From Hylemonella sp. UBA6679 (GTDB lineage Bacteria; Pseudomonadota; Gammaproteobacteria; Burkholderiales; Burkholderiaceae_C), in contig DKJZ01000109.1 in NCBI GenBank assembly GCA_002454975.1, positions 11,685 through 75,684 of the forward strand: a stretch of 64,000 bases of DNA, given 5' to 3'. Positions within the stretch are counted from its first letter, which is position 1, and every line of letters begins with the position of its first letter. The notes beneath the pieces are model-generated. The model saw nothing but the letters and a program-made list of their open reading frames with translations. It was not told the DNA's origin and searched no databases. Of the stretch, positions 10,068 through 49,481 are shown in pieces. A program made the position numbers and the translations under genes.

Positions 10068-10102
10068 GTTGCTAATCCTGGTTTTTAATTTATATTGCGT
10101 GC

Positions 10103-10504: not shown

Positions 10505-10506
10505 TT

Positions 10507-29232: not shown

Positions 29233-29726
29233 CAGTCACCTCCCAGGGGTTTGGGGGGCAGGTTCAAAGGCAAGGCGCCTGGTTCGCGCAGGGGCATGGC
29301 TTTGACGGGGGCATCCAGCATCGGCAAGCCCATAACCTTGGGGTTGAGCGCAAAGGCTTTTGCCGTCGTGGCTTGCTGCGCCATGCCTTGCAGCACCTTG
29401 GCGTTGTCTTGCAAATGGGCTTGTTGGGTTTCCATGCTTTTGACCAGCATATCGGCCAGACCCGTACCACCTCGCTTGGCCATCTTGAGTGCCACCTCTT
29501 TGTCGAACATGTTCTCAAAGGTCTCAACATGGCTGGACGCACTGATGTCGCTTTTATCGACGGTGGCGCGCATGCTCTTCATCATCTGCTGCAAGAACAA
29601 CGCTTCAAACTGTTGCGCCGTTTCGCGCATGGCCGATTTGGCGTCTTGGCGTGCCTGTCCCTTGAGCTGTCCCAGCCCATCAAAATCCAGGTAGCTCCTG
29701 GCGGTGTTGAGGGAAGCGTTGTCCAT
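29232..29726 (-). CDS. flgJ: FlgJ-like rod-binding (scaffold) protein without a peptidoglycan hydrolase domain
   Basis: 164 aa. The rod-binding motif ETAQQFEALFLQQMMKSMR is present. The protein ends in a Pro-rich tail, with no glucosaminidase or other hydrolase region. Confidence 0.85.
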   Translation of the reverse strand: MDNASLNTARSYLDFDGLGQLKGQARQDAKSAMRETAQQFEALFLQQMMKSMRATVDKSDISASSHVETFENMFDKEVALKMAKRGGTGLADMLVKSMETQQAHLQDNAKVLQGMAQQATTAKAFALNPKVMGLPMLDAPVKAMPLREPGALPLNLPPKPLGGD

Positions 29727-30865: not shown

Positions 30866-31567
30866 TCAAAAGGGCCAGAGCTTGAGCAGGGCGCTGGTGC
30901 CCCAGCCCGCCTTGGTGGCGTTGGCTAAATCTCCGCTGCCGCGGTACACAATTTGTGCATTGGCCAAGCGGCGCGACTGCACAGTGTTGTTGGGTGCAAT
31001 GTCATCGGGGCGGATGATGCCGCTGACCTGAATCACTTCAGCGCCCTCGGTCAGGGCGAGTTGTTTTTCGCCACGCAGCACGAGGTTGCCGTTGCTCATC
31101 ACATCGATCACGGCCACCGCAACTGAGGTGACCAAGCTGGCTTGTTGGTCTGCTGCGCCGGTGCCCTTGTTGCTGATTTTTCCACCTAGCACAGGGGCCC
31201 CTTTAAGCCAGCCACCTGCATTGGCCGCAATGTCTTGTGTGCCCTGCGGGACCACGTTGTTGGATGATTCGCGGCTCAGGTCGTTGTTGAGTGTGCGCGA
31301 GGCTTGCGACGACTCATTGACCAGCACGGTGATCACGTCACCGACCTGGTAATTGCGCCCCTTGCCAAACCAGCTTTCGCTTTGGCGACCGTTGTAGATG
31401 GCCCCTGTGGGCACGATCATGCTGGTGTCCACACGGGGATACACCGGCTCGAACGTGGCCGAGTGCTTGAGCGGCTCGGGCGGCAACACTGTGCCGCAGC
31501 CCGTCAAGACGGTTGCCACGAGCACCAAAGCGGGCAGGGTACAGCGCAATGTCATGGTGACCTTCAA
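30866..31567 (-). CDS. flgH: Flagellar L-ring lipoprotein FlgH
   Basis: Lipobox VLTGCG; typical FlgH core; 233 aa. Confidence 0.95.
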   Translation of the reverse strand: MKVTMTLRCTLPALVLVATVLTGCGTVLPPEPLKHSATFEPVYPRVDTSMIVPTGAIYNGRQSESWFGKGRNYQVGDVITVLVNESSQASRTLNNDLSRESSNNVVPQGTQDIAANAGGWLKGAPVLGGKISNKGTGAADQQASLVTSVAVAVIDVMSNGNLVLRGEKQLALTEGAEVIQVSGIIRPDDIAPNNTVQSRRLANAQIVYRGSGDLANATKAGWGTSALLKLWPF

Positions 31568-33180: not shown

Positions 33181-35910
33181 TCAAGAACGCAGGTTGATGA
33201 TCGCGGAGGTCATCGTGCTGGAGGTTTCAATCGCTTTGGCATTGGCCTGGAAGTTACGCTGTGAGGTGATCAAGTCCACCAGCTCATTGGTCAGGTCCAC
33301 GTTGGAACGCTCGGTGGCACCAGCGCGCAACGTGCCAAAACCAGCAGAACCGGCGTTGCCCAAAATGGGTTCACCTGAAGCCGCCGAAGCCAAAAAGGAC
33401 GAGTCACCAATTTGGCGCAACCCGGAGGGACTGGAGAAGTTGGTCAGCAGAATTTTTGCCAGCGACTTTTGTGTGCCGTTTGAGAACGACGCACTCACCA
33501 AACCATCGTTACCAATCGTCACACCCACCAGGTCACCCTCAGGGGCGCCGTCTTGTGACTGCGACAACACGGCAAACGATGACTGGTACTGGGTCGAACC
33601 CGAGTAGTTCACATTGATGGTCAAGGCACCCTTACCACCGGCCAGGTACACCGTGTCCAACTGCGTGCCAGCCAGTGGGGACACCAACTTACCGCCGGTG
33701 TCGAACGTCAACTGTCCTTTTTGCAAATAAACCGGCGACCATGGGGGCAGGGTGGTGAAGCCGTCACCGCTGGTGGTTTCCACGCCAGCGCTGTCGATGT
33801 ATTTGGGCTGCAAAGTGCCGCCCACCAACTCTTTGTGCTGGGTGGGGTTGATCCAAGTGGAGGCAGAACCACGCCCAGCCTCAACGTTTTCCAGTCCCCA
33901 GTTGGCACTGCCCGAAATTTTGATGAAAGAGTCGGCGCCCGTTGTGCCAGAGGTGAATATGAACTGGTTTTTGACAGCGTCAAAACTCACCTTCACGCCA
34001 TTGACGGTGGCGGGTGTGCCGTTGCCATCGGTCGCAGCCATGGCATTGATGCCGTTTTGAAGTTTGGAGATGAAAGTTGACAGCGAGTAGTTGGCATCGG
34101 TGGGCATGACCACCGTGCCTTTGATGCCGTCGACCGTGACCACAAATTTGTTGTTGGTGTCGTCCACTGCAAAGTTGTTGGACATGTTCACCGTGGGCGT
34201 GGTGCCATAGGCCACCGCAGGGCTGGAAGCAATACCGCGAGTCGCCGTGGCCGATGTTTTGATTTCCTGAGAGGTCAAACCGAGCAGGTCTATCGCTTTG
34301 GAGCCACTGGGCACCGTCAGGTTCAGGCTGGATTTGTCTCCCGTGGTGCCTGATTTGATGGCGAAGGTGCGGTTCACCGAGTCGTAACTCACGGTCATGC
34401 CAAACCGTTGCACTGCTGATGCGCGTGAGCTCGAGCCATTGGGGATGACCTTGGTACCGCTCAAGCCAGAGTCGTTGAGTGTGATGGGGGTGACCGGCAT
34501 ACCCAACACATCGTTACGCACGGTGCTGCCAGAACTCAATTTGATGACCGAGTTGGTCGCGCCTGTGTCTTCAAATTTCAAGCCCTGAGCGTCATAGTCA
34601 TAGCTGACCTTCAGGCGGGGCGAGCCACCCGTTGGGTTCAAGGTGGTGTTGGCATCGAGCTTGGCTTGAATGGCAGCGACCAACTGATCAACGTTGCCCG
34701 AGGTGAAGCCCGAGTCCAGAACAATTGGGATGGGTGTGGTCAGCGAGGCCGCCACACGTGAATTGGAGATGGCAAAGGTACGGCTGGCCGAATCTGGGAA
34801 GCTGAATATCGCCTCGTCGCCAAACTTTTTCCGCAACACATTGGTCATTTCCGTGGCCAGCTGTGTACCCGTGAACGTGGCGTTGACGCCCTTGAGGTGG
34901 CTCAAGTCCATGGTCACTGGGGTGCCGCTGCCATCCACATCTAAGCTGAACAAGTTGGCCAAGTTGCTTGTATCGAAATCCGAAGCGGTTGAAAAGTTAA
35001 TGCCGTTGGTCAGGTCATAGCTGGCACCTGCGGCCGAGCCACCGACTGTGGCTGGTAGGGAGGTGCGCTTATCGGTCAGTTCATCCAAGGAAAACAGCTG
35101 GGTTTTGGCAGTGGTGATCTCGTCTTTGACTTTGCTGTACGGCTGCAGCTGGCCATACTGGTTCACATACAGCTCCTCGCCGTTCGAGTCAGTGGCTTGT
35201 TGCAGCGAGGCACCCACCTCGTCTTCGCCCACAAACACATAGGTTTGCCATTTGTTGAACGGGCTGCTCTGGCTGGCGTTTTGGGTTTTGACGTAATAAA
35301 TTGTGGCCAGGTAACCGTTGCCACCGGCGTCATACACGGTCAGCGCGGTACTCTTGTTGTAAGTGGCAGGGTTGTTGCGGTTGAAGCTTTCGGTGATGAC
35401 CGAGGCGTCTGAGGGGAAGTTCAATCCCAGGTTCACCTGCGAGGTTTGCTTGGCTTCGCCCGATGTTTTTTGTGGGATGTTGAGCACCACGCGTTCGTTC
35501 ACGTTGGCAGAACCGGTCGAGTCCACCGTCGCTGCCATCAGTCGCTGACCCGCTGAGTTCACCACATTGAACTGTTCGTCCAACATGAACGAGCCGTTAC
35601 GCGTGTACACCTGTTGCAAGCCGTCGGCCGATCGCATGGGGAAGAAGCCGTCACCAGTGATTGCCAAGTCCAGGGCGTTTGATGAGAACGAGATATTGCC
35701 CTGGTTGAATTCCTGCGTGACCTGCTTCAAGGACACACCCTGACCCACGGTTGATGAGGACTTTTGCAGAGGCGAGGTCGCAAAAATGTCACCGAAGTCA
35801 GCGCGTGAACGCTTGAAACCTGTGGTGCCCACGTTGGCGATGTTGTTGCTGGTCACGCCCAGCTGGGCCGTGGCGGCGTTCAAGCCGGTGAGCGAGGTGT
35901 AGAAGGACAT
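33181..35910 (-). CDS. flgE: Flagellar hook protein FlgE, strongly enlarged (909 aa)
   Basis: N-terminus MSFYTSLTGLNAATAQLGVTSNNIANVGTTGFKRSR and C-terminus NVDLTNELVDLITSQRNFQANAKAIETSSTMTSAIINLRS, with a very long central insertion. Confidence 0.95.
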   Translation of the reverse strand: MSFYTSLTGLNAATAQLGVTSNNIANVGTTGFKRSRADFGDIFATSPLQKSSSTVGQGVSLKQVTQEFNQGNISFSSNALDLAITGDGFFPMRSADGLQQVYTRNGSFMLDEQFNVVNSAGQRLMAATVDSTGSANVNERVVLNIPQKTSGEAKQTSQVNLGLNFPSDASVITESFNRNNPATYNKSTALTVYDAGGNGYLATIYYVKTQNASQSSPFNKWQTYVFVGEDEVGASLQQATDSNGEELYVNQYGQLQPYSKVKDEITTAKTQLFSLDELTDKRTSLPATVGGSAAGASYDLTNGINFSTASDFDTSNLANLFSLDVDGSGTPVTMDLSHLKGVNATFTGTQLATEMTNVLRKKFGDEAIFSFPDSASRTFAISNSRVAASLTTPIPIVLDSGFTSGNVDQLVAAIQAKLDANTTLNPTGGSPRLKVSYDYDAQGLKFEDTGATNSVIKLSSGSTVRNDVLGMPVTPITLNDSGLSGTKVIPNGSSSRASAVQRFGMTVSYDSVNRTFAIKSGTTGDKSSLNLTVPSGSKAIDLLGLTSQEIKTSATATRGIASSPAVAYGTTPTVNMSNNFAVDDTNNKFVVTVDGIKGTVVMPTDANYSLSTFISKLQNGINAMAATDGNGTPATVNGVKVSFDAVKNQFIFTSGTTGADSFIKISGSANWGLENVEAGRGSASTWINPTQHKELVGGTLQPKYIDSAGVETTSGDGFTTLPPWSPVYLQKGQLTFDTGGKLVSPLAGTQLDTVYLAGGKGALTINVNYSGSTQYQSSFAVLSQSQDGAPEGDLVGVTIGNDGLVSASFSNGTQKSLAKILLTNFSSPSGLRQIGDSSFLASAASGEPILGNAGSAGFGTLRAGATERSNVDLTNELVDLITSQRNFQANAKAIETSSTMTSAIINLRS

Positions 35911-37701: not shown

Positions 37702-38736
37702 TCATCGCTGCACGTTGTCGACGTTGTCAACCGCGCGGTATTCCGCCGAGCGTTGCGCTTGCAAGCGGTTGGGCAGGGCGTTGCTCAGGTTCTGACCGAA
37801 GTTGCCCAAGCGGTCCATGGTGTTTTGAACCAGGCCTTGCAAGATGGAGTTGCGGGTGATGGACGACTGCGGATTGCGCCCTTCATACAAGGCATGCGCC
37901 TGGTTGCCGGGTATACCCAAAGGCGCCTCGGGTCGCGTCTCGGCACGGGCTGCAGGTTGCAGCACCGCCAAATAAAGTTCATCCAGTGGCACTTGACCTT
38001 GCTTGTTCAGACCCACCTTATCGAAATAGGTGTCGACCAAATGCAACTGCTGGTAAACACTCAGGCTTTGGATGGCGCGAGGCGCATGGCCAAAGCCTAC
38101 GCTGGCAGCGCCGCGGGCTGGGCCATCGCAAAACTGGATGATCCCGTGGCATCGCTGGTTGGTGGCTTGCGGGTTCATGCCGTCGCTCTCCATGAGTGTG
38201 AGCTGCGCAAAATCGTCGGGTGAAAACTTGTGCTTGCCTGCCACTTGCAAGATTTTGTTGTAGACGTCTTGCTTTTCATTGGGAGGAATGAAGCCGCGTG
38301 CCACAGCTCTGTCCAGCGTTTGTCGCAGCACCGGGTGTGCTGGTGCTGCCGATGCAGTTTTAGCTGTCAACACAGCCTGGGTGCTAGGCGCAGGGGGCTG
38401 AACTGTGTTCGTTGCCAGGCCCGATGTGTTGGTTTTTTGAGCCATGACCTCACCAGCAGGGTCGGCCCAGCGGGCATGAAGACTGGCTATGTTGAGCTGC
38501 TGGCCAATGAAGATTCGGTTGGGGTTGGCAATGCCGTGGTCTTTGGCCAGGGCCATGACCGAGCGAAATTCCTGGGCATTGTTGAGTTGCACCCCGCGGC
38601 TTTGCGCCTCTTGCCGAACGATATGGCTCAGGGTGTCGCCATTTTTGACCGTGCGAAGGGCCACAGCGCCATGTGGCTCTTGCGGCTTGCTGGGTCTGCT
38701 TAAACCGGGGCTTTGGGAGGTGTCATTAATTCGCAT
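37702..38736 (-). CDS. LysM-domain protein with a lytic-transglycosylase-like C-terminal domain; no signal peptide
   Basis: N-terminal LysM (RTVKNGDTLSHIV...NPNRIFIGQQLNI). The C-terminal TLMESDGMNPQATNQRCHGIIQF resembles the SLT E-S...NP...G(L/I)(M/I)Q motif. The N-terminus MRINDTSQSPGLSRPSKPQEPHG is hydrophilic. Confidence 0.65.
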   Translation of the reverse strand: MRINDTSQSPGLSRPSKPQEPHGAVALRTVKNGDTLSHIVRQEAQSRGVQLNNAQEFRSVMALAKDHGIANPNRIFIGQQLNIASLHARWADPAGEVMAQKTNTSGLATNTVQPPAPSTQAVLTAKTASAAPAHPVLRQTLDRAVARGFIPPNEKQDVYNKILQVAGKHKFSPDDFAQLTLMESDGMNPQATNQRCHGIIQFCDGPARGAASVGFGHAPRAIQSLSVYQQLHLVDTYFDKVGLNKQGQVPLDELYLAVLQPAARAETRPEAPLGIPGNQAHALYEGRNPQSSITRNSILQGLVQNTMDRLGNFGQNLSNALPNRLQAQRSAEYRAVDNVDNVQR

Positions 38737-38762: not shown

Positions 38763-39512
38763 ATGTCAAACAACAGTGTCAAAACTTCAACACCCATGCA
38801 CAGACTTGTGCAAATCTTGTGCCTGACGTTTTTTTGTCTGTTTTTGAGCGGCTTGCCCGCCCACGCTCAGGTCAACACGCCAGCCCAAGACATGGCGCTT
38901 CAGGTACGCCAGTGGCTGGCCAAAGCCCATGGCGTGGAGAGCTCGTCGGTGGACATTGCCCCTTTGGACACCCGATTGAAGGTGCAAACCTGTGCTCAAA
39001 GTTTGACGGTGGACCACCCCTTTGCCTCCCGCGACACAGTGCGGGTGCGTTGTGCTCAGCCGGTGTGGCAGCTCTATTTGCAGGTGAGTTTTGCTGCGCC
39101 GACCACCTCCCAGGCCAAGGCTGGCCCTGTAAAAACCATGGTCGTTCCCAAGCGTTTGCTACCTCGCGGCACCTTGCTTGAGCCCGAGATGCTCGAGGAA
39201 GTCGCCATGAACACCCAGGGCGCCGACACTTCTTTGTTGAGCACCATCAAAGACGTTGAACACGCTGAGTTGGTTCGCGACATGACCGCAGGCTCGCCCA
39301 TTCGCAGCTCAGACCTCCGACGTGCCACCATGGTCAAGCAAGGCCAGCAGGTGATGATGGTGATTGGCGAAAAGTCAGCTTTTCAGGTGATCATCAGGGC
39401 TGAGGCGATGCAAGATGGTCGCATGGGTGAGCAGGTTAAGCTCAAAAATACCGAGTCTGGGCGCCAGATTTCGGGGGTGGTGATCGGGCCTAACCAGGTT
39501 CGGGGGCTTTAA
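38763..39512 (+). CDS. flgA: P-ring assembly chaperone FlgA
   Basis: Signal-like N-terminus. The C-terminal SAF-type region GEQVKLKNTESGRQISGVVIGPNQVRG is typical of FlgA. Alternative start at 38796 (MHRLVQILCLTFF...). Confidence 0.85.
   Translation: MSNNSVKTSTPMHRLVQILCLTFFCLFLSGLPAHAQVNTPAQDMALQVRQWLAKAHGVESSSVDIAPLDTRLKVQTCAQSLTVDHPFASRDTVRVRCAQPVWQLYLQVSFAAPTTSQAKAGPVKTMVVPKRLLPRGTLLEPEMLEEVAMNTQGADTSLLSTIKDVEHAELVRDMTAGSPIRSSDLRRATMVKQGQQVMMVIGEKSAFQVIIRAEAMQDGRMGEQVKLKNTESGRQISGVVIGPNQVRGL
38810..38824 (-). promoter_or_regulatory. Sigma-54-type promoter for the LysM/SLT-like gene, located inside the flgA 5' coding region
   Basis: The minus strand reads AGGCAC-AAGAT-TTGC (GG and GC correctly spaced). 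Predicted TSS is about 38798, 62 nt before the ATG at 38736. Confidence 0.5.
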
Positions 39513-39526
39513 ATGCAAATAGCTGC

Positions 39527-39553
39527 TCAAGTTTTAGAATCTGAGTCCGAATC
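39527..39553 (+). promoter_or_regulatory. FliA (sigma-28)-type promoter of flgMN
   Basis: TCAAGTTT-N11-TCCGAATC, 53 nt upstream of the flgM ATG. A class III promoter before flgM is the canonical arrangement. Confidence 0.8.
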
Positions 39554-39605
39554 ATCACATGCCAAACCCCCATTCTGGGTTTGAGAACCGGAAAGAGAGC
39601 TTGTC

Positions 39606-39926
39606 ATGACCGATCCCATCTACAACAAACCACTGCGAGGTCCATCCGACCCCTTGCAACGTGCGGTCTTGGACAAAACAGAAAAAAAAGCGCCTGCAGC
39701 TACGGCGAGCAGCTCGGAAAACACCGCGCCAACCCGCTCCACCCGTGCCCCCGGACCCGACGAGTTGTTGTTGAGCAACGTGGCAGCACGTGCCCAGGCT
39801 GAGCCTGCGTATGACAAAGCCAAGGTTGAGTCCATCAAGCAAGCCATTCAAGATGGTCAGTACCCGCTTGATCCACGTCGTATAGCCGAGAGCTTTCACG
39901 CTTTGGAGCGCATGATCCGTGACTGA
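39606..39926 (+). CDS. flgM: Anti-sigma-28 factor FlgM
   Basis: 106 aa. The C-terminal KVESIKQAIQDGQYPLDPRRIAESF is typical of FlgM. Confidence 0.9.
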   Translation: MTDPIYNKPLRGPSDPLQRAVLDKTEKKAPAATASSSENTAPTRSTRAPGPDELLLSNVAARAQAEPAYDKAKVESIKQAIQDGQYPLDPRRIAESFHALERMIRD

Positions 39927-40299
39927 TACCGTGCTGGCCCAAGCGGCCGAACTCACCCGTTTGCTGCACCTGGAGTTTGAGGCGCTCAAAAACCAGGACC
40001 TGGACTTGTTTGAGTCCTTGCAGCCGGGTAAGTCCGAGCTGTTGGGTAGCCTTGGAGAGTCATGCCCGCCCGCGCAAGCCCTGCAAAACGACGCTGCCAT
40101 GCAGCCCTTGCGAGATCTGTTGCTGCAATGCCGTGATTTGCATCGGCGTAATGCCATGCTGATTGAGCGTAAGCTCGACACGATTCGCGGTGCCCTGCAC
40201 AGCTTGCGTACTGGTGAGAACGCCAGCCCACTGGAGGTTTACGATCGCTTGGGACAGGTGGCACGTTTTAACCGTGGCCGGGGTTACCAAGAAGCCTGA
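39919..40299 (+). CDS. flgN: Flagellar chaperone FlgN
   Basis: 126-aa helical protein with a GTG start overlapping the flgM stop. FlgN-like N-terminus (LLHLEFEALKNQDLDLFESL). Confidence 0.8.
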   Translation: MTDTVLAQAAELTRLLHLEFEALKNQDLDLFESLQPGKSELLGSLGESCPPAQALQNDAAMQPLRDLLLQCRDLHRRNAMLIERKLDTIRGALHSLRTGENASPLEVYDRLGQVARFNRGRGYQEA

Positions 40300-40302
40300 G
40301 CG

Positions 40303-40620
40303 TCAAGGCGTCGCTTGAGGCGACGTCGGTGGTGTTGATGGTGTTTGTGTTGCCTTTTCATCCCCCGGACGCATGCCCTTGAGCCAATACACCCACGACA
40401 AGACCACCGCAACAACGGTGTAGAGCTCCTGAGGAATTTCCTCGTCCACCTTCAAGCGGCTCAGCAGTGCCAGCAGTTGTGGGTCTTCGGTGATGAACAC
40501 GCCTTGGCGCTTTGCTTCTTCAATCATGCGCCAAGCCACATCCTCCTCGCCCTTGGCCGTGACCAAAGGGACAGGGTTGCGGCCGTAGGCCAGCGCGATG
40601 GCTTGGCGCTTGTGGCTCAT
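40303..40620 (-). CDS. Free-standing FlhB C-terminal-domain paralog (FhlB/YlqH-like)
   Basis: 105 aa. AIALAYGRNPVPLVTAKGEEDVAWRMIEEAKRQGVFITEDPQLLALLSRLKVDEEIPQELYTVVAVVLSWVY aligns with the post-NPTH part of FlhB/YscU C-domains. No TM domain. Confidence 0.8.
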   Translation of the reverse strand: MSHKRQAIALAYGRNPVPLVTAKGEEDVAWRMIEEAKRQGVFITEDPQLLALLSRLKVDEEIPQELYTVVAVVLSWVYWLKGMRPGDEKATQTPSTPPTSPQATP

Positions 40621-41702
40621 GCGCGTATGTCCACCACCAGCCCGCGACCCGAAGGTGTCCAGTCAGCATCTTGGGCAGGGCGTACGCCATGCACAACCTT
40701 GAAAGCTTGAAGGTTCAGACCAGCCTGGTTCAGCTCGCTGGCCAAGGCCGCTTGTTGCGTGCGTGCTTGTTGGGCCACATCAGCCATTTCGGCCCACATC
40801 GTGAGCTCGACCGTGCTGGTGCCGATGAGTTTGGTCTGTAGCCACACGGGCCCCAAGGTGTCGCTTTTCGAATGCACGTTGACGGTGATGATCGGCTCTG
40901 TACTGTCGCTGCGCGCAGGACGACGAAAGGTGAGTTCGATTGGTTGACCGTCAACAAAGGGCAGCGTCATGCTGAACATGATTTCGTTCTGTGCCTGGGC
41001 TTGTACCGCTTGAACTTGGTGCGCTTCGAGCTGGTCGATGGCGCGCTGTACGTTGTGGGCGCTGGGACTGTCCTCACCCTGGATCAGATCGTCTTGTTGC
41101 AAGGCGTCGAGCAAACCCCGCAGGAACTGCTTGGGGTCTTGACCTGGCATGTTTCGGCCGCGAGCCAGCCATACCTCAGAACCCATGGCCCCCATGAGCG
41201 CGAGCCTCAAGGCCTGTGGGTTCATGCCAGCGAGCGACAGTTGCAGGTTCTGCCACTGCGCCTGAAGGTCGGGGCGGGCCAAGCCTTCGAGCAGCCGGGC
41301 CATCTGTCGACCCTCCAACACCTGGCTCAGGTCGGTCATGCCACTGGGTCGATAGAGCAAATTGGCAATGCGTGACACCAAAGGGGGGGCCAAAGTCATT
41401 GGGACATTGGTCTGCCCAGATGACAGAGGTAGCAAACCCCACTGACCGTCGGCGCGTTCTTGCACCCGCAGCCAGATGGATTGGCCAGCCAGTGCGGTCT
41501 GAATATTGGGTGCCTCGATCATCTTGCCTTTGAGCAACAGCGATGTCTCACCTCCAATGAGCCGTACCGCTGCTTGAACCACCTGTGCGTCTTGCAGTTT
41601 GAGTTCAGCCGCGGTGCTGGCTTGCAGCGACACGAGCCGCCCCTCCAGGTAAATGGTGGGTACGCGGTTGGTAACGGGCAGCGCCTCGGCCGTTTGGATC
41701 AT
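40617..41702 (-). CDS. Second FliK-like protein (C-terminal Flg_hook-type domain)
   Basis: 361 aa. The C-terminal region MTLPFVDGQPIELTFRR...VNVHSKSDTLGPVWLQTKL...ELTMWAE..DVAQQARTQQAALASELNQAGL resembles the FliK substrate-specificity-switch domain. 4-nt overlaps with both neighbours. Confidence 0.6.
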   Translation of the reverse strand: MIQTAEALPVTNRVPTIYLEGRLVSLQASTAAELKLQDAQVVQAAVRLIGGETSLLLKGKMIEAPNIQTALAGQSIWLRVQERADGQWGLLPLSSGQTNVPMTLAPPLVSRIANLLYRPSGMTDLSQVLEGRQMARLLEGLARPDLQAQWQNLQLSLAGMNPQALRLALMGAMGSEVWLARGRNMPGQDPKQFLRGLLDALQQDDLIQGEDSPSAHNVQRAIDQLEAHQVQAVQAQAQNEIMFSMTLPFVDGQPIELTFRRPARSDSTEPIITVNVHSKSDTLGPVWLQTKLIGTSTVELTMWAEMADVAQQARTQQAALASELNQAGLNLQAFKVVHGVRPAQDADWTPSGRGLVVDIRA

Positions 41703-42178
41703 GGGTAGCGCACCCAGTCACGCCTTGCGGTGGGGTCAGGGGCGGGCGCAGGAGACAGGCTGGCCAAAGCCGGCTCGGACACCAAAGGTATGAGTGTACC
41801 CATCGCGATGTGGCCGTGATCAGGCATCGTCAGGGTAGAACCAGGCTTGAGGCGCACGCTTTTGCCATGACCTAAAGCAGGGTTGGCCGCCAGCACCGCG
41901 CTGCGCAGCACTTCTGTTTTGAGGGGGCTGGCTTTGTAGTGGCTGGCCAGCAGCTTGTCCAGGGTGTCGCTTTTTTTCACCAGGTAGGGCGTGCCTGGTC
42001 CAGGCAAGGCTGGGCTGTTGCTGGTTGGGCTGGCAGCGTTGGTGGTTGTGGGCTTGCTGTGACTTGGTTCAGCCGCCCGCGAGGGGAGGGTATTCAAAGC
42101 AGCGATGCAAACGAACAGCAATGCCGACATCGCCGTGGCATGTGTCTTGGAGGCGAGGTGTTGAGCATCAGCTTGCAT
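41699..42178 (-). CDS. Secreted LysM-like (FimV-type) protein
   Basis: I trimmed the ORF to Met 42178, giving the signal peptide MSALLFVCIAALNTLPSRAAEP. YLVKKSDTLDKLLASHY...ANPAL...RLKPGSTLTMP resembles a peptidoglycan-binding LysM motif. Confidence 0.5.
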   Translation of the reverse strand: MQADAQHLASKTHATAMSALLFVCIAALNTLPSRAAEPSHSKPTTTNAASPTSNSPALPGPGTPYLVKKSDTLDKLLASHYKASPLKTEVLRSAVLAANPALGHGKSVRLKPGSTLTMPDHGHIAMGTLIPLVSEPALASLSPAPAPDPTARRDWVRYP

Positions 42179-42192
42179 GACAAGGCCTTTGT

Positions 42193-43569
42193 TTATCGTG
42201 GGGCGGCGCCTAACGCCAGGTTGGAGCGAGATTTGGGCAAAGCCGTGACTGGCAAGCTCACCGGGGTGTCTTGGCGCAAAGTCTGTGTGGGCCAGGCCCG
42301 CCAATTAGGTTGAACCGCCTGGGTGGGGCCTGCCAACACCGTCAGCATGGCCTCGTGCGCCGAGACGGCGTCCACCCGCGCCAAAAGGGTTTGTGGCGCT
42401 CCGTCTTTGGCCGCCAGGTGTTGTGGGAAACGGGCTGGGTCGGCAATCAACCATTCCTCGCCGGGCTGTACCCCTGCCAAGGCACCGGCATTGATGATGA
42501 GCTGTTGTTGCCTAGCCGCTGTCACTGCGGGTTGCACCACCTCGCACATGAGCCACTGGTTGAGGGTCTGGTGCCAGGCCATGAGTTGGTTGCTTAATGC
42601 GCGCTGGCTACTGGCAGTCAGGGTGGGTCGGCGCCACTCGGGCAGGTCCATCTCCAGGGTCAGGCTGGTCTGAACGTGCTGGCTTGCCCTGTGCCGGTCG
42701 GTGGGGCTGAGGGAGAGCGTCATGCTCAGGTCAACTTCACGCGGTGTGCTGGGACCCAACCAAGACACACCCGAGCTCATGGCAGGGCGGGCCGTGACTT
42801 TCAGTGTGGCTTGCCATGGCATTTCAGGCGGCAGTGTGCTGAGCAACAAGCGTTCGTAGGCGCTGACCTCACGCGCCAACAGAGGCCGTGACAGGTCGGA
42901 CACAAAACGCCACGCCTGGGTGCTGGGCTGGGCTTGGGGGCCTAGCCATTGTTCTTGCAGCAGGGCAGGCAAGCCTTGCGCGACTAGGGGGTGGGTGTCA
43001 CTGGGCATCTCCAACGCAAACTTCACCACATGGCGCAGGTGGTCGGCAGTACTTTTGCTTGGGCAGCTGGCGTCGTTTTTTTCAATGCTTGCCTGAGCAA
43101 CTTTAGCTTCTTTTTTGATAGCAGGTTTACCAGTTGTAGCGCTGCTTTCAGCTATATTCAACCAAGCTTTGGGTGCGCCTTGCTCGTCCCGCTCAAAGCC
43201 CATCACACGCACGCCTTGTACCTGCAGGCCGTTTTTGAAACTGCTGGCCTCATGCATCACACCGCGGTGGTCCATCCAGGTTGTGCTTTGCACCTTGGTG
43301 GGCGTTTGCAAAGAGGCTTCCACCAGGCTCAGGCGGATGGCATCTAAGCGCTCTTGCGGGCTGAGCGCGCTCGTGTTTGTGCTCGGTTTGGGCGCGGTCG
43401 CTGAGGTTTGCGCCTGCGCTGCGGGTAAACCTAGGCCCATGCCCAAAGCCAGTAACAAACCGGCAAGCAGCTGGGGCTGGGGCAACAACAAAGCCAAGGG
43501 CAACGCCCAAGGCTTGGGCCAACGCTCAGGAGATTGGCTGCTGGGCAACATCACATGCTTGGGTATCAA
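42193..43569 (-). CDS. Secreted 458-aa protein of unknown function, possibly FlgT-like
   Basis: Signal peptide ending AAQAQ. The C-terminal LIINAGALAGVQPGEEWLIADP....LARVDAVSAHEAMLTVLAG resembles the small beta-barrel signature of FlgT-C/LPP20-type domains (from memory). 4-nt overlap with the flgP-like gene. Alternative ATG at 43551. Confidence 0.45.
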   Translation of the reverse strand: MIPKHVMLPSSQSPERWPKPWALPLALLLPQPQLLAGLLLALGMGLGLPAAQAQTSATAPKPSTNTSALSPQERLDAIRLSLVEASLQTPTKVQSTTWMDHRGVMHEASSFKNGLQVQGVRVMGFERDEQGAPKAWLNIAESSATTGKPAIKKEAKVAQASIEKNDASCPSKSTADHLRHVVKFALEMPSDTHPLVAQGLPALLQEQWLGPQAQPSTQAWRFVSDLSRPLLAREVSAYERLLLSTLPPEMPWQATLKVTARPAMSSGVSWLGPSTPREVDLSMTLSLSPTDRHRASQHVQTSLTLEMDLPEWRRPTLTASSQRALSNQLMAWHQTLNQWLMCEVVQPAVTAARQQQLIINAGALAGVQPGEEWLIADPARFPQHLAAKDGAPQTLLARVDAVSAHEAMLTVLAGPTQAVQPNWRAWPTQTLRQDTPVSLPVTALPKSRSNLALGAAPR

Positions 43570-44066
43570 CGCGCGCTCACGGTCACTTGACCAATGAACA
43601 CGCGGCGCAGCTCGTGCACCACATCGCGGTCCAGTGACAGGGTGGTTTCATACGTGTCGTCACCCACCGGGGTGATGCTGACAAGCCGAGCGCCATAAAT
43701 CACGCCTTCAACTTTGGTGCGAAAGGTGTCGTTGGTCACCATCATGTCTGCCACGGTGGAGTTGGCATCGAGCTGCTGGCCGTAGACCTGTTCGGTCAGG
43801 GTGCGGTAGGCGTCTAATTTAGAGGCACGGATGGCCATCAAGCGCTGCTGGGCGGGATTTTTGCTCTGTTGCACGCTGATGACTGCATAGCCCGTGGCCG
43901 TGATGGTTTCGCGTTTTTGAACAATGGGACCGCTGGGTTGGACCGCTTCGGCCACAGGGGGCGCCAGGTCTATGGTGGTGCATCCTGCCAGGCCAGACAC
44001 AGCCAAAGCCAGGGCCAGGGCCAGACTTGTGGGGTGGGCGCTGGCAGATAGTCGGGTGCTTTTCAT
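43566..44066 (-). CDS. flgP: FlgP-like (LPP20 family) flagellar outer-membrane-associated lipoprotein
   Basis: Lipobox GLAGCTT. The core ATGYAVISVQQSKNPAQQRLMAIRASKLDAYRTLTEQVYGQQL..NSTV......DTFRTKVEGVIYGARLVSITP..DDTYETTLSL matches the FlgP/LPP20 pattern. Confidence 0.75.
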   Translation of the reverse strand: MKSTRLSASAHPTSLALALALAVSGLAGCTTIDLAPPVAEAVQPSGPIVQKRETITATGYAVISVQQSKNPAQQRLMAIRASKLDAYRTLTEQVYGQQLDANSTVADMMVTNDTFRTKVEGVIYGARLVSITPVGDDTYETTLSLDRDVVHELRRVFIGQVTVSAR

Positions 44067-44132
44067 GAGGGGTCCTTGTGGTCAGTGAGCGTTTCAAGCC
44101 TCGGTAGGAGGTGATGATCCGGGACACACTTT

Positions 44133-44159
44133 GATTCGACAGCAGGTCTGAAAGCTTGA
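44133..44159 (-). promoter_or_regulatory. FliA (sigma-28)-type promoter of the flgP-like operon
   Basis: The minus strand reads TCAAGCTT-N11-GTCGAATC, 67 nt upstream of the ATG at 44066 (AAGGA RBS). Confidence 0.6.
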
Positions 44160-44268: not shown

Positions 44269-45465
44269 TTGGCTACTTCGTCGATCCTCCCCACCTTTTT
44301 GGGCACCAGCCCGAGCGCGGTGGCCATTCGTCATTTGATTGAACGCGTGGCGCCATCCAGCGCGACTGTGCTCATCACTGGGGAGAGCGGAACTGGCAAG
44401 GAGCTGGTTGCCCGTGCCTTGCACGAGCAGTCCGAGCGCCGCGGGGCCCATTTTGTGCCGATCAACTGTGGTGCCATTCCCAAAGAACTGCTCGAGAGTG
44501 AGCTGTTTGGTCACCGCAAAGGCGCATTCACCGGAGCCATGGCCGACCGCGTGGGTCGCTTTGAGCTGGCGCATGGCGGTACGATTTTTCTGGACGAAAT
44601 TGGTGATATGCCACTGGACATGCAGGTTAAGTTGCTGCGCGTCTTGCAGGAGCGCACTGTAGAGCCTGTAGGCGGTTCGCGTCCGATCCCTGTCGATGTG
44701 CGCGTGGTGGCGGCTACCCACCGTGACCTGGAGGCGGAGATTGCCGCAGGACGCTTCCGTGAGGACTTGTATTACCGTCTCAATGTTTTGCCTATGAATA
44801 CCCCCGCCCTGCGCGAGCGTGGTCAGGACATTCCCGAGTTACTTCGCTTTTTCGCCCATAAATTTGCGGGCCAGGGCCAGGTGCCCATCAGCTTTGCACC
44901 CGACTTTATGGGGGTGTTGCAAACCTACGCTTGGCCAGGCAATGTTCGGGAGCTTTCGAACCTGGTTGACCGTTTCAACGCTTTGTTCAGCGGTCAACAG
45001 CTCAGCCTGGCGATGGTGCCACCGTCTTTTTTACCTAAGGGTTTGCGTGATTTGCAGGCTGAGCTGGCAGTCGGCACGGTGGCCGATACCCTTGCGCTGA
45101 GTCCTTACGCCTCCAACGAGCAAAACCGGTTTGACATTCCGCATGAGCTTGACTTGGTCGGAGCGACCCCAACACCGCATAACGATGTTGAAGACATCAT
45201 CATGCTGGCTCAGGGTTTGCCATGCCTGCCACCTGAAGGCTTGTCCTTGAAAGACTGTTTGGCTGGTATCGAGCGGGATTTGATTTTGCAGGCCCTCAAC
45301 CGGGCGGGGGGAAATGTTTCTCAGACAGCGCGTTTGTTGAACTTGCAGCGCACCACCCTCATCGTCAAGCTGGACAAATACGAACTGCGCGGTCTCGATG
45401 GTCAAGCTGACAGCGCTGATCACATGACTGAGTGCGCCGACAGCAACGGCGCAGCCGCTGCCTGA
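44269..45465 (+). CDS. Sigma-54-dependent enhancer-binding protein with only an AAA+ core and HTH (no N-terminal regulatory domain)
   Basis: The ORF cannot extend upstream; its TTG start is the first possible start in frame. The AAA+ domain begins within about 15 aa ([25 protein letters not shown]). C-terminal [27 protein letters not shown]. Confidence 0.9.
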
Positions 45466-45466
45466 T

Positions 45467-46384
45467 TCAAGGTTTTGTGCTGAGCACACCTGCTCCGGGG
45501 GTGGGGCTGGCATCTGAACCCGTGCGTGGGTACTGCACCATGAGCTCGCGTTTGCGCAGTGCTGCCGCACTCGCCGCCTCTGCTGCGGCTTTGGCCTGGC
45601 TGGCTTGCGCTTGGGCATTGGCTTCTGCCGTTTGTCGTTCGCGTTGCTGGCGTGCCAGCACTTCCATCTCGCGCTTCAAGCCTCCGGTTTCACCCAAGGC
45701 AGAACGCAGACCTTGCATCTGACCCGTCAGTGCATTGAGCGCAGAGGCCTGTGACTGCAAACGACCTTCCAAGTTTTGCACCTGTTTGGCCAATACCTGG
45801 CCTTTGGCATCGACTTGTTTGGCGGTTTGTTCCGGCACGCTTTGCGTGCTTTCCATCATCTCGTTGATACGTACCTCGAGTTTGGTCTGGGCCGAGGCGA
45901 TGTTGGCTTGCTTGGCCACCATCTCTTGAAGACCCTCGTTGACTGAGCCCACCACTTCAAGCGCATCGTTGAGTTCGCCCACGCGCTTGCTCATGGCGCT
46001 CAGCATCTGGTCAAGCTGGTTCAAGCGCGCTTTGAGGGTAAAGGTCATGGTGCCAAACACCAGCGCGCCAAACACCAACAAAGCGCCAGTGATGCCAAAC
46101 AGTAACAACGTTTTCTTGTTCTGCGATTTCAGCGTGGTGTTAATTTCCTTGGTGGCCTCCTTCAGACTTGCGCCTGCGTTGGTGGCCATGTGGGCTGATC
46201 GGTTAGCCAATTCGGCCGACTCCAGCACCACCACCCGCATGTCGATCAGCTCCTGGTCTTGCCCTTGTTCATCAGGGGTAGCTGGCGTATCGGCGGCCTG
46301 TGGCGAGGTCGCTGCTTGTGACTCGGCCACGACAACGCCCTTCTCATCAGGGGTGGGTTCGTTGGTTTTGGTGTCCGTGCTCAT
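45467..46384 (-). CDS. Single-pass membrane protein with a ~190-aa coiled-coil C-terminal region; unknown function
   Basis: 305 aa with one TM segment (TLLLFGITGALLVFGALVFGTMTF). Q/A/L/E-rich heptad-like sequence follows. The start overlaps the upstream stop (TGATG). Confidence 0.6.
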   Translation of the reverse strand: MSTDTKTNEPTPDEKGVVVAESQAATSPQAADTPATPDEQGQDQELIDMRVVVLESAELANRSAHMATNAGASLKEATKEINTTLKSQNKKTLLLFGITGALLVFGALVFGTMTFTLKARLNQLDQMLSAMSKRVGELNDALEVVGSVNEGLQEMVAKQANIASAQTKLEVRINEMMESTQSVPEQTAKQVDAKGQVLAKQVQNLEGRLQSQASALNALTGQMQGLRSALGETGGLKREMEVLARQQRERQTAEANAQAQASQAKAAAEAASAAALRKRELMVQYPRTGSDASPTPGAGVLSTKP

Positions 46385-46926
46385 CAGGTGTCCTTGTCTA
46401 ATTCGTCCAAGCGCTTTTGAAGTAACTCGTTTTCAATGCGCAAATGCACGATGCGCGCCGGAAAATCCATCTCAGGCATGGCCGGGAAGGATGGGGCTGT
46501 CGCAGTCGCTTTGGGTAAAACACGGTCTTCACCAAAGGATTCGGATGCAGGCCCCGAAGCTTGAGCCCCAGGCGATGTCGGGGTGGCCTCGTCTCGGCTC
46601 GGTGGGGCAGCTGCCGTGTGCGTCCCCATACTTGAAGGGGCGGGCACAGACACCTGGGATGTTGCTGCGGCATCTACCAAACCTTGGGTCTTGGCAGGCT
46701 TGTCAGCGCTGATGTTGTTGTCTGGGCGACTTTGCAGGGCTGGCGTGGTGTCGCTCACAAACTTGTCTGGCAGGATGTGCTCGATGATCTCGCCACCGCC
46801 TTCATTGAGCACCTTACGCACGGATGGCTCTTGCTGCGCCGCGGTCTTGGCCAAGGCTTTGTTCGACCCTTCGGGAATGGTGACCTCATGTTGCCGGTCG
46901 GAGCGGATGATGTCAGGTTCACTCAT
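46384..46926 (-). CDS. 180-aa low-complexity (P/A/S/T-rich) protein with a short C-terminal coiled coil; unknown function
   Basis: The ORF shows host-like third-position G/C bias and is translationally coupled to the next gene. I recognise no domain. Confidence 0.45.
   Translation of the reverse strand: MSEPDIIRSDRQHEVTIPEGSNKALAKTAAQQEPSVRKVLNEGGGEIIEHILPDKFVSDTTPALQSRPDNNISADKPAKTQGLVDAAATSQVSVPAPSSMGTHTAAAPPSRDEATPTSPGAQASGPASESFGEDRVLPKATATAPSFPAMPEMDFPARIVHLRIENELLQKRLDELDKDT
46538..46564 (-). promoter_or_regulatory. Intragenic FliA (sigma-28)-type promoter upstream of the coiled-coil membrane protein gene
   Basis: The minus strand reads TCAAGCTT-N11-TCCGAATC, inside the 180-aa ORF and about 150 nt upstream of the ATG at 46384. 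Confidence 0.55.
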
Positions 46927-46950
46927 GGTGGGATGGCGCTCGGAAAGGTA

Positions 46951-48330
46951 CTAGGGTTGGGTAACGTCGGCGGCAGATGAGAACAGCCGCTTTTGCATGG
47001 CCCGGCTGGAGCGAACCCAGCTTTCTTTGGGCATGTTCTGCGTTTGTAAAAATTCATCGGCCAATTCCTTGGTGGCAAAAGGTCCAGACACCAGTGCGTA
47101 GCGCGCCTGACTTTGCCCCGCTTCAAACTGTGGCACCACTTTGGCTTGACTCAAATTAGGGAAACGCTTTTGACGATCGCGGGCTTTGGCATAGGTTTCT
47201 GAATTGGTGTGTTGCACCACAAAAGTACCTCGGGCAAAAGCCTTCATCCAAGCTTGACCATCCGATGCAGCGCCAGGCAGCTCTGTTTGGACTTGGGTCT
47301 GTTTGATTGCGTCTTGGGGTGGCACGGTCTCGACAACCTGAGCGGTTGAGGTGTTGGCCAGGGGGGCTGCCGCGTTGATGTCGGCTACAGGTGTCTCAGG
47401 CCCAGGTGCAGCGGTGCCTTTGAAAACTTCAGCCTCAGAGCTTGCGTTGTTTTGGGTGGGTTGTGTCACAACAGCCTCAGCCACTTGGGGCTGGACCTCG
47501 GCTAGGGTGGCATTCGTCTGGCCCACCAAAGCACGAAACGCTTGCGGGTTGAGCCACGCCGCCACACCCGCAGAGAACATCAACAGGGCTGCCACAACAG
47601 CAGCCGCTTTGAGACGCATGGCCATGGTGGATGTGGTTGCAGGCTTGAGAGCGCTGGACTTACCTCCAGGCTTGGTGATGTCTGCAGGCCCAGCCGGGGC
47701 AGGGGGCACGGCGGCAGCCTGCCGTGCAGGGTCTGATTTTGCAGCCGAAGCTGTCGGGGCCATACGCGCAATCAGCGCGCGAACTTCAGTGGCTTGCGCA
47801 TCATGGCTCACACGTCCCAGACTTTCTTTGATTTGATCCAGACTGGGTCGCGCAATGGTCCAGCGCATGAGCGATTTGTTGAAGCTGGCGAGTCCTTCTG
47901 GCTCTGACTCTGCACCGGCAAAGACCAACAAGGCGCGCACATGTGCGCCAGGAAACTTTTCCAGCAGGTCGAGCATCATCATCACCTCGCCAGCGGGCAG
48001 GGCAGCTGCGTCATGCACCACCCACAATTGCATGGGCCGGTCCTGGGTCGGGGCTGCCATGGCCTGGGTCAAGGGTAAGTCGGCGACCACTTGGTTGAAG
48101 CTGCTGACAATCGCATCGGTGTCAGCCGGGAAAAACGGCTTGATCAGGACATGCGGTACGTCGATGTTCAAACGTTCGATGAGCATGTCTTTGTAATGCT
48201 CAGCTAAGGCATGAACCGCAGAGATGATGGCCAGGCTTTTGCCATCCTTGCTGATTGCGGCGACCGCAGCCTCGTAGCGAATCCGGTCGATCAGTTGAAA
48301 GAAGTGGGGTTCCATGACGTGATCGTTCAA
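46951..48330 (-). CDS. SPOR-domain membrane protein with a degenerate ExeA-like (P-loop-less) N-domain
   Basis: The C-terminal FVVQHTNSETYAKARDRQKRF....ARYALVSGPFATKELADEFL looks like a SPOR fold signature. Central TM segment AAVVAALLMFSAGVAAWL. The N-domain has LWVVHDAAAL (DEAQ-like) but no GxxGxGK. TTG at 48330 overlaps the flhB stop; alternative ATG at 48315. Confidence 0.6.
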   Translation of the reverse strand: MNDHVMEPHFFQLIDRIRYEAAVAAISKDGKSLAIISAVHALAEHYKDMLIERLNIDVPHVLIKPFFPADTDAIVSSFNQVVADLPLTQAMAAPTQDRPMQLWVVHDAAALPAGEVMMMLDLLEKFPGAHVRALLVFAGAESEPEGLASFNKSLMRWTIARPSLDQIKESLGRVSHDAQATEVRALIARMAPTASAAKSDPARQAAAVPPAPAGPADITKPGGKSSALKPATTSTMAMRLKAAAVVAALLMFSAGVAAWLNPQAFRALVGQTNATLAEVQPQVAEAVVTQPTQNNASSEAEVFKGTAAPGPETPVADINAAAPLANTSTAQVVETVPPQDAIKQTQVQTELPGAASDGQAWMKAFARGTFVVQHTNSETYAKARDRQKRFPNLSQAKVVPQFEAGQSQARYALVSGPFATKELADEFLQTQNMPKESWVRSSRAMQKRLFSSAADVTQP

Positions 48331-49481
48331 GAGCTGCGATTGTCAGCCAATTTACCGTCGGGATCGAACAGCATCGAGGCAGGGACTTTAGGGTTGGGGC
48401 GAGGCATGGGCTCGACGCCTGGCTTGATATCAGCCAGGCTAAAGACATAGGCAATCACCTGGGCCACAGCCAAGTACAGCGACTCGGGGATGGGCTGGTC
48501 TTCCTGGGTGGTGAAGTACAAGGCGCGCGCCAAGGGGGGCGCTGCAAACATCTCAACGCCGTGCTTGGCCGCTTCCTCACGGATGCGAGCAGCCATGTGG
48601 TCAGCGCCCTTGGCCAGCAAAATCGGGGCGCCGTCTCCGGTAGGGTCGTATGACAGGGCTACCGCAAAGTGTTCAGGGTTGGTGATGACAACGTCTGCAT
48701 CCTTGACCTTTTGGATCATGCGGGCGTTGGCCATTTCACGCTGACGCTGACGGATCGCTGCCTTGATTTCAGGACGACCTTCCATGTCTTTCATTTCATC
48801 CTTGACCTGCTGCTTGGTCATCATCATGCGTTTGTTGAAGGAGAAGCGCTGGTAAGGTGCATCGATGAATGCAATGATGAGCAGGCTCAACGACAGCCAC
48901 ATGGCCGACTCGCCGATCATGGCACCTGCGGCCCCCAGCGCGGGCTCCAGGCTCATTTGACCCAAGGCCATGAGCGCATCCATCTGACGGCTCACCAAAA
49001 CCCAAAGCACCACGGTGACCAGTGAAAACTTCAGCACCGATTTGCCCAGTTCAACCAGCGCATGTGTACCAAACATGCGGGTCAAACCTTTGAGTGGGTT
49101 GATTTTTTCAAATTTTGGGGTCGCGCTTTTCATGGTAAACAAAAAGCCGCCGGTGGCACCACTGGCCAGCACAGCCAGCACCAGGGTGAAAAGCAGAACA
49201 GGCAGGATCAGCAGAAAACTCTCCCCCATGTGGTGCATGAAGGTGGTGGCCATCAGGTCAGGGTTGTCCAGCGTTTTGCGGTCAAAGCTGAACCCCTTAG
49301 CAAACGATGTGCTTAGCCGTTGAATCCAGGCACTGCCTATCATGTAGAGCAGCACGATCGCCCCAATCGTGACTGCAGCAGCGGGTAGCTCCGTCGAGCG
49401 AGCGACCTGACCGTCTTCACGCGCTTTGCGCAGGTGTCGCGAGGTGGGTTGTTCGGTTTTTTCTGCGCTGCTCTCAGACAT
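48327..49481 (-). CDS. flhB: Flagellar export gate protein FlhB
   Basis: N-terminus EKTEQPTSRHLRKAREDGQVARS, four TM segments, and an NPEH autocleavage-type site (ITNPEHFAVAL). Confidence 0.95.
   Translation of the reverse strand: MSESSAEKTEQPTSRHLRKAREDGQVARSTELPAAAVTIGAIVLLYMIGSAWIQRLSTSFAKGFSFDRKTLDNPDLMATTFMHHMGESFLLILPVLLFTLVLAVLASGATGGFLFTMKSATPKFEKINPLKGLTRMFGTHALVELGKSVLKFSLVTVVLWVLVSRQMDALMALGQMSLEPALGAAGAMIGESAMWLSLSLLIIAFIDAPYQRFSFNKRMMMTKQQVKDEMKDMEGRPEIKAAIRQRQREMANARMIQKVKDADVVITNPEHFAVALSYDPTGDGAPILLAKGADHMAARIREEAAKHGVEMFAAPPLARALYFTTQEDQPIPESLYLAVAQVIAYVFSLADIKPGVEPMPRPNPKVPASMLFDPDGKLADNRSS

Follow-up and report, generated by a model that had tools for sequence, protein, structure and literature searches.

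A divergent FlgT homologue encoded with FlgP and a LysM-fold protein in the flagellar cluster of a Limnohabitans-like Comamonadaceae bacterium

Does the flagellar motor of freshwater Burkholderiales carry a collar of the kind that the H ring forms in Vibrio, and if so, which genes would encode it? The question is raised by a locus in a 64-kilobase (kb) stretch of DNA, here called the window, to which all coordinates refer. The window holds a complete polar-type flagellar cluster of a Limnohabitans-like Comamonadaceae bacterium, and within this cluster lies an operon of five minus-strand open reading frames (ORFs) that, in the ORF list, are closely spaced or overlapping and run from 44066 down to 40303. 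Read 5′ to 3′, they are flgP, a divergent flgT, a LysM-fold gene, a fliK2-like gene and a flhX-like gene. A preliminary description of the same DNA had placed an accessory operon of three ORFs at 41699-44159. The positions and the minus strand of these ORFs were correct, and the interval covers the promoter and the first three genes, but the operon runs on through 40617-41702 and 40303-40620. Our reading is that FlgP, the divergent FlgT and the LysM-fold protein probably build an H-ring-like collar around the L/P bushing, a structure proposed for this lineage by analogy with the Vibrio LPHT ring and the Fla1 flagellum of Rhodobacter (Cereibacter) sphaeroides.

The protein that most needed placing is the product of the second gene (42193-43569, minus strand), which is 458 amino acids (aa) long when counted from a TTG that overlaps the flgP stop codon (TTGA). 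An ATG 18 nucleotides (nt) downstream (43551) is an equally plausible start, so that flgP and the flgT homologue either overlap or lie ~15 nt apart. The protein begins with a signal peptide (...LLAGLLLALGMGLGLPAAQA/QT), recognized by eye from a hydrophobic N-terminus and an AQA/Q site that are conserved in the alignment, and has three ordered domains at ~67-142, 167-341 and 348-437. The family alignment contains two invariant cysteines, Cys169 and Cys342, and three conserved blocks. A database search retrieved 77 homologues, one of them with a precomputed FlgT_C match and none with a functional name, every source giving "hypothetical protein". The cluster look-up for the family likewise returned no informative names, and when 1.84 billion representative proteins were searched exhaustively with a profile, 346 clusters (50% identity) passed E<1e-3, all labelled hypothetical.

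Comparison with FlgT was made by sequence profile and by structure. Taken alone, the 458-aa protein has a sub-threshold match to Pfam FlgT_C (PF16538; E 0.029, 15.2 bits against a cut-off of 27), and the NCBIfam scan gave no match. FlgT_C is also the sole recurrent Pfam match in the 41- and 77-member family sets, where it is found in 36 of 41 close and 20 of 77 distant relatives, with best E-values of 1.5e-5 to 1.7e-5. Against PDB, a narrow family profile matched FlgT chains only (E 1.2e-3). The broader profile A4, built from the 77-sequence alignment whose members share 18-37% identity with the window protein, again matched FlgT only, over residues 61-334 (the M and C domains) at E 1.7e-6 and with Cys169 and Cys342 aligned on the FlgT cysteines. 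The AlphaFold model has a mean predicted local distance difference test score (pLDDT) of 72.6, mostly >85 in the M and C domains, and falls to low values only in the signal and linker regions, in residues 143-166 and in the C-terminal tail. In Foldseek searches of PDB this model matched 8z5n_0, the Vibrio FlgT of the LPHT ring, at E 3e-12 over 407 aligned columns, and the FlgT crystal structure 3w1e at E 2.6e-11 over 344 columns; the next fold after FlgT reached E 5.6e-4, ~10^7-10^8 times worse.

By these profile and model comparisons the 458-aa protein is a genuine, very divergent, full-length remote homologue of FlgT, and it lies outside the Pfam FlgT_N and FlgT_M families as now defined. 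The preliminary description had called it possibly FlgT-like at its C-terminus, unrecognisable elsewhere and perhaps a new ring component. The relation to FlgT is borne out, the homology extends over the full length in both profile A4 and Foldseek, and the protein is better described as a very divergent member of the known FlgT lineage than as a new component. The same description had proposed the profile and structure comparison with FlgT, which supports the relation, and had named clear homology to a non-flagellar family as the finding that would speak against it; no competing family was found. Membership of a non-flagellar family was rejected, the Foldseek matches to ITPase, CsgG and LptE being 10^7-10^8 times weaker and limited to single domains.

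The first gene (flgP, 43566-44066, minus strand) encodes a 166-aa outer-membrane lipoprotein of the LPP20/FlgP family, and on sequence grounds its identification as FlgP is firm, as the preliminary description had it. Pfam LPP20 (PF02169) matches it at 32.8 bits against a cut-off of 25.9 (E 9.6e-8). Among the FlgP chains of solved flagellar motors in PDB it matches 9yec_Fa at 4.7e-17 and Vibrio FlgP (8z5n_2) at 1.6e-15, and it matches 9hmf_C, a more distant lipoprotein chain used for comparison with the Campylobacter/Helicobacter basal disk, at E 5.4e-7. The NCBIfam scan gave no match. Inspection of the sequence locates a lipobox (LAGC) at ...LAVSGLAGC(29)TT, which points to Cys29.

The third ORF is listed as 201 aa (41699-42304) from an upstream TTG. 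Because its homologues all start at the ATG at position 42178, we take this as the real start, which gives a small secreted protein of 159 aa (41699-42178, minus strand) with a signal peptide followed by a conserved core. It ends in an invariant C-terminal motif, RRxW[VI][RQ][FY]P, that is kept in distant relatives. The AlphaFold2 core, residues 62-119, is beta-alpha-alpha-beta (strands 62-66 and 115-119, helices 73-80 and 88-98) with pLDDT ~90, and LysM domains make up nearly all of the top 19 Foldseek matches, at E-values of 0.2-5 that are expected because the domain has only ~55 residues. Pfam gave no match at E<=0.1 on the 201-aa translation. On the 159-aa form it gave Phage_tail_X alone (E 0.077, below cut-off), and on 16 orthologues the matches were weak, with Phage_tail_X in three (best 0.0064) and LysM in two (0.092). 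Three database homologues carry a precomputed PF05489 match, and the family profile has a marginal match in PDB to the LysM domain of Kbp (E 0.29). These weak matches (Phage_tail_X, LysM and Kbp) all fall within the LysM domain clan (PF01476). At the level of the predicted fold, "LysM-like" is thus a reasonable label, in line with half of what the preliminary description had proposed; its further qualifier, "FimV-type", is unsupported, as NCBIfam gave no match at E<=0.1, the FimV model included.

The last two genes, judged by their domain content, are counterparts of fliK2-flhX of Pseudomonas putida. The 361-aa product of the fourth gene (40617-41702, minus strand), whose ATG overlaps the stop of the LysM-fold gene (ATGA), has a C-terminal Flg_hook domain at 30.1 bits against a Pfam cut-off of 29.8. 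This gene is a second copy; the canonical FliK, of 503 aa, is encoded at 53631-55142 and scores 7.2e-19. The ATG of the fifth gene (40303-40620, minus strand) overlaps the fliK2-like stop, again as ATGA, and its 105-aa product is a stand-alone homologue of the C-terminal (post-cleavage) domain of FlhB. It matches Pfam Bac_export_2 at E 9.2e-16 over profile positions 262-335 only, and NCBIfam TIGR00789 (flhB_rel) at E 2.4e-19 and 69.3 bits, below the cut-off of 117. A full-length FlhB is encoded separately at 48327-49481. Through these overlaps the fourth and fifth genes are translationally coupled to the LysM-fold gene. In P. putida, too, a protein with a FliK C-terminal domain is followed by a stand-alone FlhB C-terminal domain behind a FliA-type promoter, and the pair forms an operon whose dependence on FliA has been shown by experiment but which has no assigned function (bioRxiv 10.1101/2021.08.29.457346). 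There the pair stands alone, whereas here it is the distal part of an operon headed by flgP and the flgT homologue.

This arrangement is widely kept. The five-gene order is found in 39 species-level Limnohabitans/Comamonadaceae genomes, within a longer conserved order that runs from flhB through three unknown genes, a sigma-54 activator on the opposite strand, flgP, the flgT homologue, the LysM-fold gene, fliK2 and flhX to flgN-flgM-flgA (opposite strand), a LysM/transglycosylase-like gene and flgB. The closest relatives are all Limnohabitans, Comamonadaceae or Burkholderiales genomes or bins, with identities of 67-86% for FlgP across the 39 loci and at most 80% for the 458-aa product. Metagenomic relatives at ~23% identity still keep the five-gene core, and the linkage of the fliK2-like and flhX-like genes to the ring genes persists in two distant relatives, L041 and L042. 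The flgT-like family is paired with FlgP in every locus examined. Among the bacteria with this locus are two that can be cultivated, Limnohabitans sp. Rim11 and MMS-10A-178.

On both sides the operon borders on regulatory or flagellar genes. Convergent with it on the plus strand lie flgA-flgM-flgN (38763-40299), identified from the ORF list, from synteny and from L041 orthologues with ChapFlgA, FlgM and FlgN Pfam matches. The preliminary description had recorded this adjacency, and the Vibrio synteny to which it referred agrees with the V. cholerae locus numbers, in which flgOP (VC2207-06) and flgT (VC2208) lie near flgBCDE (VC2200-2197) (PMC3439928). Divergent from flgP is a sigma-54 activator of 398 aa (44269-45465, plus strand) that lacks a receiver domain, with Sigma54_activat at E 5.3e-74 from residue 11 and an HTH_8 domain; it stands beside flgP in all related loci.

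How might these proteins work together? In the collar that we propose, the FlgT homologue would be exported by the Sec system and would assemble around the FlgH/FlgI (L/P) bushing. Lipidated FlgP would form a ring under the outer membrane, docked on the FlgT collar and probably touching it through its short C-terminal tail, as in Vibrio. The LysM-fold protein could tie the assembly to peptidoglycan, or could recruit a further partner through its invariant RRxWVRYP motif. The outcome would be an H-ring-like brace that stabilises the bearing and that may also serve as a platform for MotAB stators. The decoration would probably be added late, onto a finished hook-basal body, because the operon has a FliA-type promoter shared with fliK2-flhX.

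The closest structural model is the Vibrio H ring, composed of FlgT, FlgP and FlgO (3w1e, 8z5n). The LP ring of Vibrio alginolyticus is encircled by FlgT and FlgP, each present in 26 copies, and the C-terminal tail of FlgP sits in a FlgT groove; a long N-terminal loop of FlgH clamps FlgT-M, and MotX and MotY form the T ring below (bioRxiv 10.64898/2025.12.04.692373). The window shares with Vibrio a FlgP that matches at E 1e-15 to 5e-17, a C-terminal FlgP tail of 12 residues as compared with 11 (Q133-F143), the three-domain fold and conserved cysteine pair of FlgT, and a position of the genes beside flgA-flgM-flgN in a polar-type cluster with FlhF and sigma-54 regulators. A second precedent is R. 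sphaeroides, where a distant FlgT forms an H ring and binds FlgH, MotB, FliL and MotF, together with FlgP, without MotX/MotY and with a proton channel, and where loss of FlgT leaves the flagella paralysed (PMC7277832). Fla1 thus combines, outside Vibrio and Aeromonas, a distant FlgT and FlgP with a MotAB stator, and gives an earlier example of an H ring with a second role in stator recruitment. It differs in belonging to another bacterial class, in having been acquired from a gammaproteobacterium, in needing FlgP before hook assembly, and in having no described LysM-fold partner or fliK2-flhX linkage. The basal disk of Campylobacter/Helicobacter is more remote. It shares an LPP20-family lipoprotein, at the weaker 9hmf_C match; however, Epsilonproteobacteria have FlgP and no FlgT (PMC5758724), and the partners of the disk, FlgQ and PflA/PflB, did not turn up in the window.

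Several observations weigh against a collar of this kind. The 458-aa protein is only 11-13% identical to Vibrio FlgT, and the FlgT_N and FlgT_M Pfam models match none of the 41 and 77 family members. Global template-modelling (TM) scores against FlgT are low (0.32-0.42), because the domain arrangement differs and ~110 residues are disordered. The LysM assignment rests on weak scores. FlgO, MotX and MotY were not found among the ORFs scanned with Pfam, a scan that left flgI, flgH, flgG, flgF, flgE and fliM-fliR to be identified by position. The window FlgH (30866-31567, minus strand) has a core closer to Vibrio-type FlgH (E 2e-30) than to that of Salmonella (7e-24), but it lacks the ~30-residue N-terminal loop that clamps FlgT-M in Vibrio, its conserved core beginning 8 residues past the lipobox cysteine as against ~40 in Vibrio FlgH; the mode of FlgT docking therefore cannot equal that of Vibrio. 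Finally, late FliA-type expression differs from Vibrio and would clash with the kind of role that FlgP has in R. sphaeroides, where it is required ahead of hook assembly (PMC7277832).

The differences from Vibrio are therefore those of a variant rather than a copy of its ring, since FlgH lacks the L_N loop, FlgO, MotX and MotY are missing among the scanned ORFs, and the operon adds a LysM-fold gene, is fused to fliK2-flhX and has a FliA-type instead of a sigma-54 promoter. The stator also differs in being MotAB-like. The window MotA matches MotA chains weakly (1e-9 to 1e-11) and no match to PomA was obtained at E<1e-3. Among gammaproteobacteria the H-ring genes correlate with sodium-driven stators (PMC6375700).

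The alternative that survives best partly overlaps with this collar. It holds that the FlgT homologue and the LysM-fold protein are mainly a peptidoglycan-anchored stator scaffold, a substitute for the MotX/MotY T ring that would recruit or activate MotAB instead of bracing the L/P bushing, and by analogy we regard it as a lesser but real possibility. The binding of R. sphaeroides FlgT to MotB, FliL and MotF, and the paralysis that follows its loss in a bacterium without MotX/MotY (PMC7277832), fit such a scaffold, as do the encoding of a peptidoglycan-binding-type fold beside the FlgT homologue and the presence of motAB in a cluster where MotX/MotY were not found among the scanned ORFs. Yet this analysis gave no sign of a contact between the FlgT homologue and MotB, MotX/MotY could be encoded outside the 64 kb of the window, and the label Hylemonella is attached to one homologue only, from a metagenome bin.

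The betaproteobacterium Hylemonella gracilis has a periplasmic stator-supporting ring that was described as "composed of unknown proteins" (PMC5758724). It is tempting, although we consider it rather doubtful, to see FlgP, the divergent FlgT and the LysM-fold protein, which ends in the invariant RRxWVRYP tail, as components of the ring that cryo-tomography has shown to hold a static set of 13 stators in H. gracilis. One homologue of the 458-aa protein came from a bin labelled Hylemonella sp.; a search that started from this metagenome homologue returned proteins of uncultured origin only, and because no orthologue from cultured H. gracilis was recovered, the link stays a hypothesis. If it holds, the H. 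gracilis ring would not be convergent. It would be a scaffold built on FlgT, with a LysM protein in the place of MotX/MotY, and FliA control would have it added at a late stage to a motor of the MotAB type.

Instead of forming a permanent load-bearing ring, FlgP and the FlgT homologue could serve mainly in flagellar assembly or in keeping the envelope intact, for instance in outer-membrane penetration, in the rod-to-hook transition or in sealing the outer membrane while the flagellum rotates or once it has been lost. We think this unlikely. It has precedents in Vibrio, where loss of FlgT affects assembly and outer-membrane penetration, in R. sphaeroides, where FlgP is needed for hook assembly (PMC7277832), and in Helicobacter, where the outer-membrane barrier is kept intact during rotation by a lipoprotein whose gene shares an operon with flgP (PMC11756786). 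FlgP and FlgT are nevertheless stoichiometric ring subunits in every solved case, and a FliA-type promoter, which implies expression after completion of the hook-basal body, is a poor fit with an early assembly role.

The timing argument depends on the promoter, predicted at 44135-44159 (minus strand), ~70-95 nt upstream of the flgP start codon. The sequence there is TCAAGCTT-N11-GTCGAATC (GTCGAA end), or TCAAG-N14-TCGAA, a pattern match to a sigma-28 (FliA)-type motif with one mismatch. A FliA-type promoter upstream of flgP, as the preliminary description had proposed, is well supported by its conservation footprint. The motif TCAAG-N14-[GTA][CT]CGA[AT] occurs at fixed spacing upstream of flgP in all 35 related loci with sufficient sequence on that side (background frequency, 0.14 per kb per strand), and in an intergenic alignment that is otherwise poorly conserved it is nearly invariant and the sole strong block besides the ribosome-binding site. 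Closely similar motifs, of the local form TCAAG-N14-(G/T)(C/T)CGAA, lie upstream of classical FliA targets in the window, namely flgM (39527), a flagellin gene (23380), flaG (23932) and fliS (60258). A generic promoter/terminator scan gave no excess of sites over shuffled sequence, and the exact E. coli-type sigma-28 pattern (TAAAG...GCCGATAA) does not occur in the window.

It might be argued that the operon is not FliA-dependent, that the motif is a regulator site or a sigma-70 promoter, and that the genes are expressed with the basal-body genes. The -10 element GTCGAATC and the E. coli consensus GCCGATAA have only 4 of their 8 positions in common, a sigma-54 activator gene lies divergently adjacent to flgP, and flgOP and flgT of V. 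cholerae are RpoN (sigma-54)-dependent (PMC3439928). This explanation nonetheless appears improbable, as the flgP intergenic region contains no GG-N10-GC element of the sigma-54 type, with only poor matches elsewhere, the motif recurs across the 35 loci and at flgM, the flagellin gene, flaG and fliS, the counterpart of the downstream pair is FliA-dependent in P. putida, and fliA itself is encoded in the cluster. Least credible, and largely refuted, is the idea that the 458-aa protein has no more in common with FlgT than one small beta-barrel domain and is for the rest an unrelated periplasmic protein with no flagellar role, because although its single-sequence Pfam match is weak and to FlgT_C only, and FlgT_N and FlgT_M are never matched in the family, the structural match is whole-length, the profile alignment reaches through the FlgT M domain and keeps both cysteines, the searches brought up no competing family, and in 39 species as well as in distant relatives the gene is always flanked by flgP and other flagellar genes.

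The FlgP/FlgT module as such is already known. For the large unannotated family in freshwater Burkholderiales, its operon partnership and its regulation we found no description in the literature that we searched. Earlier work associates H-ring proteins with the sodium-driven motors of gammaproteobacteria (PMC6375700), and the descriptions that we found concern Gammaproteobacteria and Rhodobacteraceae such as R. sphaeroides, whose Fla1 was laterally acquired. With the present locus, the FlgT/FlgP module is seen in a further bacterial class and beside a MotAB-like stator, the carriers being abundant freshwater Burkholderiales. Specific genes thereby become candidates for the periplasmic ring of betaproteobacterial motors that has so far gone unexplained. 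The locus also places the enigmatic fliK2-flhX pair in genetic linkage with ring proteins and makes a practical annotation fix possible for the carrier genomes.

The remainder of the window completes the cluster and holds several further observations. Besides the genes already named it contains fliE-F-G-H-I-J, a FleQ-like activator, two flagellin genes, flaG, fliD, flgL, a gene for a 914-aa FlgK, a gene for a 164-aa FlgJ, the flgB-to-flgI block, flhB, the canonical fliK, fliL, flhA, flhF, fliA, fliS and motA-motB. The FleQ-like protein (515 aa, 16621-18168) is a second activator. The interval between flhB and the sigma-54 activator (45467-48330, minus strand) is occupied by three conserved genes without an assigned function, which encode a 459-aa protein, a 180-aa protein and a 305-aa coiled-coil protein; the first has a weak C-terminal SPOR match (E 0.049). 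At least two of the three recur in this place in nearly all sufficiently long related loci, the 459-aa gene in ~9, and a FliA-like motif is found among them at 46540-46564.

FlgJ (29232-29726, minus strand) consists of the rod-binding domain alone, and just upstream of flgB a 344-aa protein (37702-38736, minus strand) has an N-terminal LysM match (E 3.4e-4) and a C-terminal part that by eye is transglycosylase-like. Together they suggest a separate flagellar peptidoglycan hydrolase, as in bacteria with a single-domain FlgJ. The ORF in the hook position, between flgD and flgF (33181-35910, minus strand), is unusually long at 909 aa; its L041 orthologue has 806 aa and FlgE Pfam domains. FlgK, of 914 aa, is encoded at 26488-29232 (minus strand). 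The two flagellin genes differ greatly in size, with products of 645 aa (18297-20234, minus strand) and 273 aa (22501-23322, minus strand), and the larger carries an insert of ~400 residues with no Pfam match; a proteolytic flagellin has been described for the related H. gracilis (PMC7643111).

Towards one edge, a 1442-aa ORF (2263-6591, minus strand) with no Pfam domain lies in a stretch of lower GC content (~49%) and has a perfect local FliA-type motif, TCAAG-N14-GCCGAA, upstream at 6652-6676 (minus strand); the adjoining 722-aa ORF (11-2179) has no Pfam match. Two further ORFs without a Pfam match (9252-10115 and 10085-10510) follow fliJ and adjoin a gene at the cluster edge (7935-9197, minus strand) for a 420-aa protein with a eukaryotic-type (alpha) carbonic anhydrase domain. 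At the other end, directly downstream of motA-motB and on the opposite strand, lies a gene for a voltage-gated-type ion channel (62797-63993, minus strand; Ion_trans E 4e-30).

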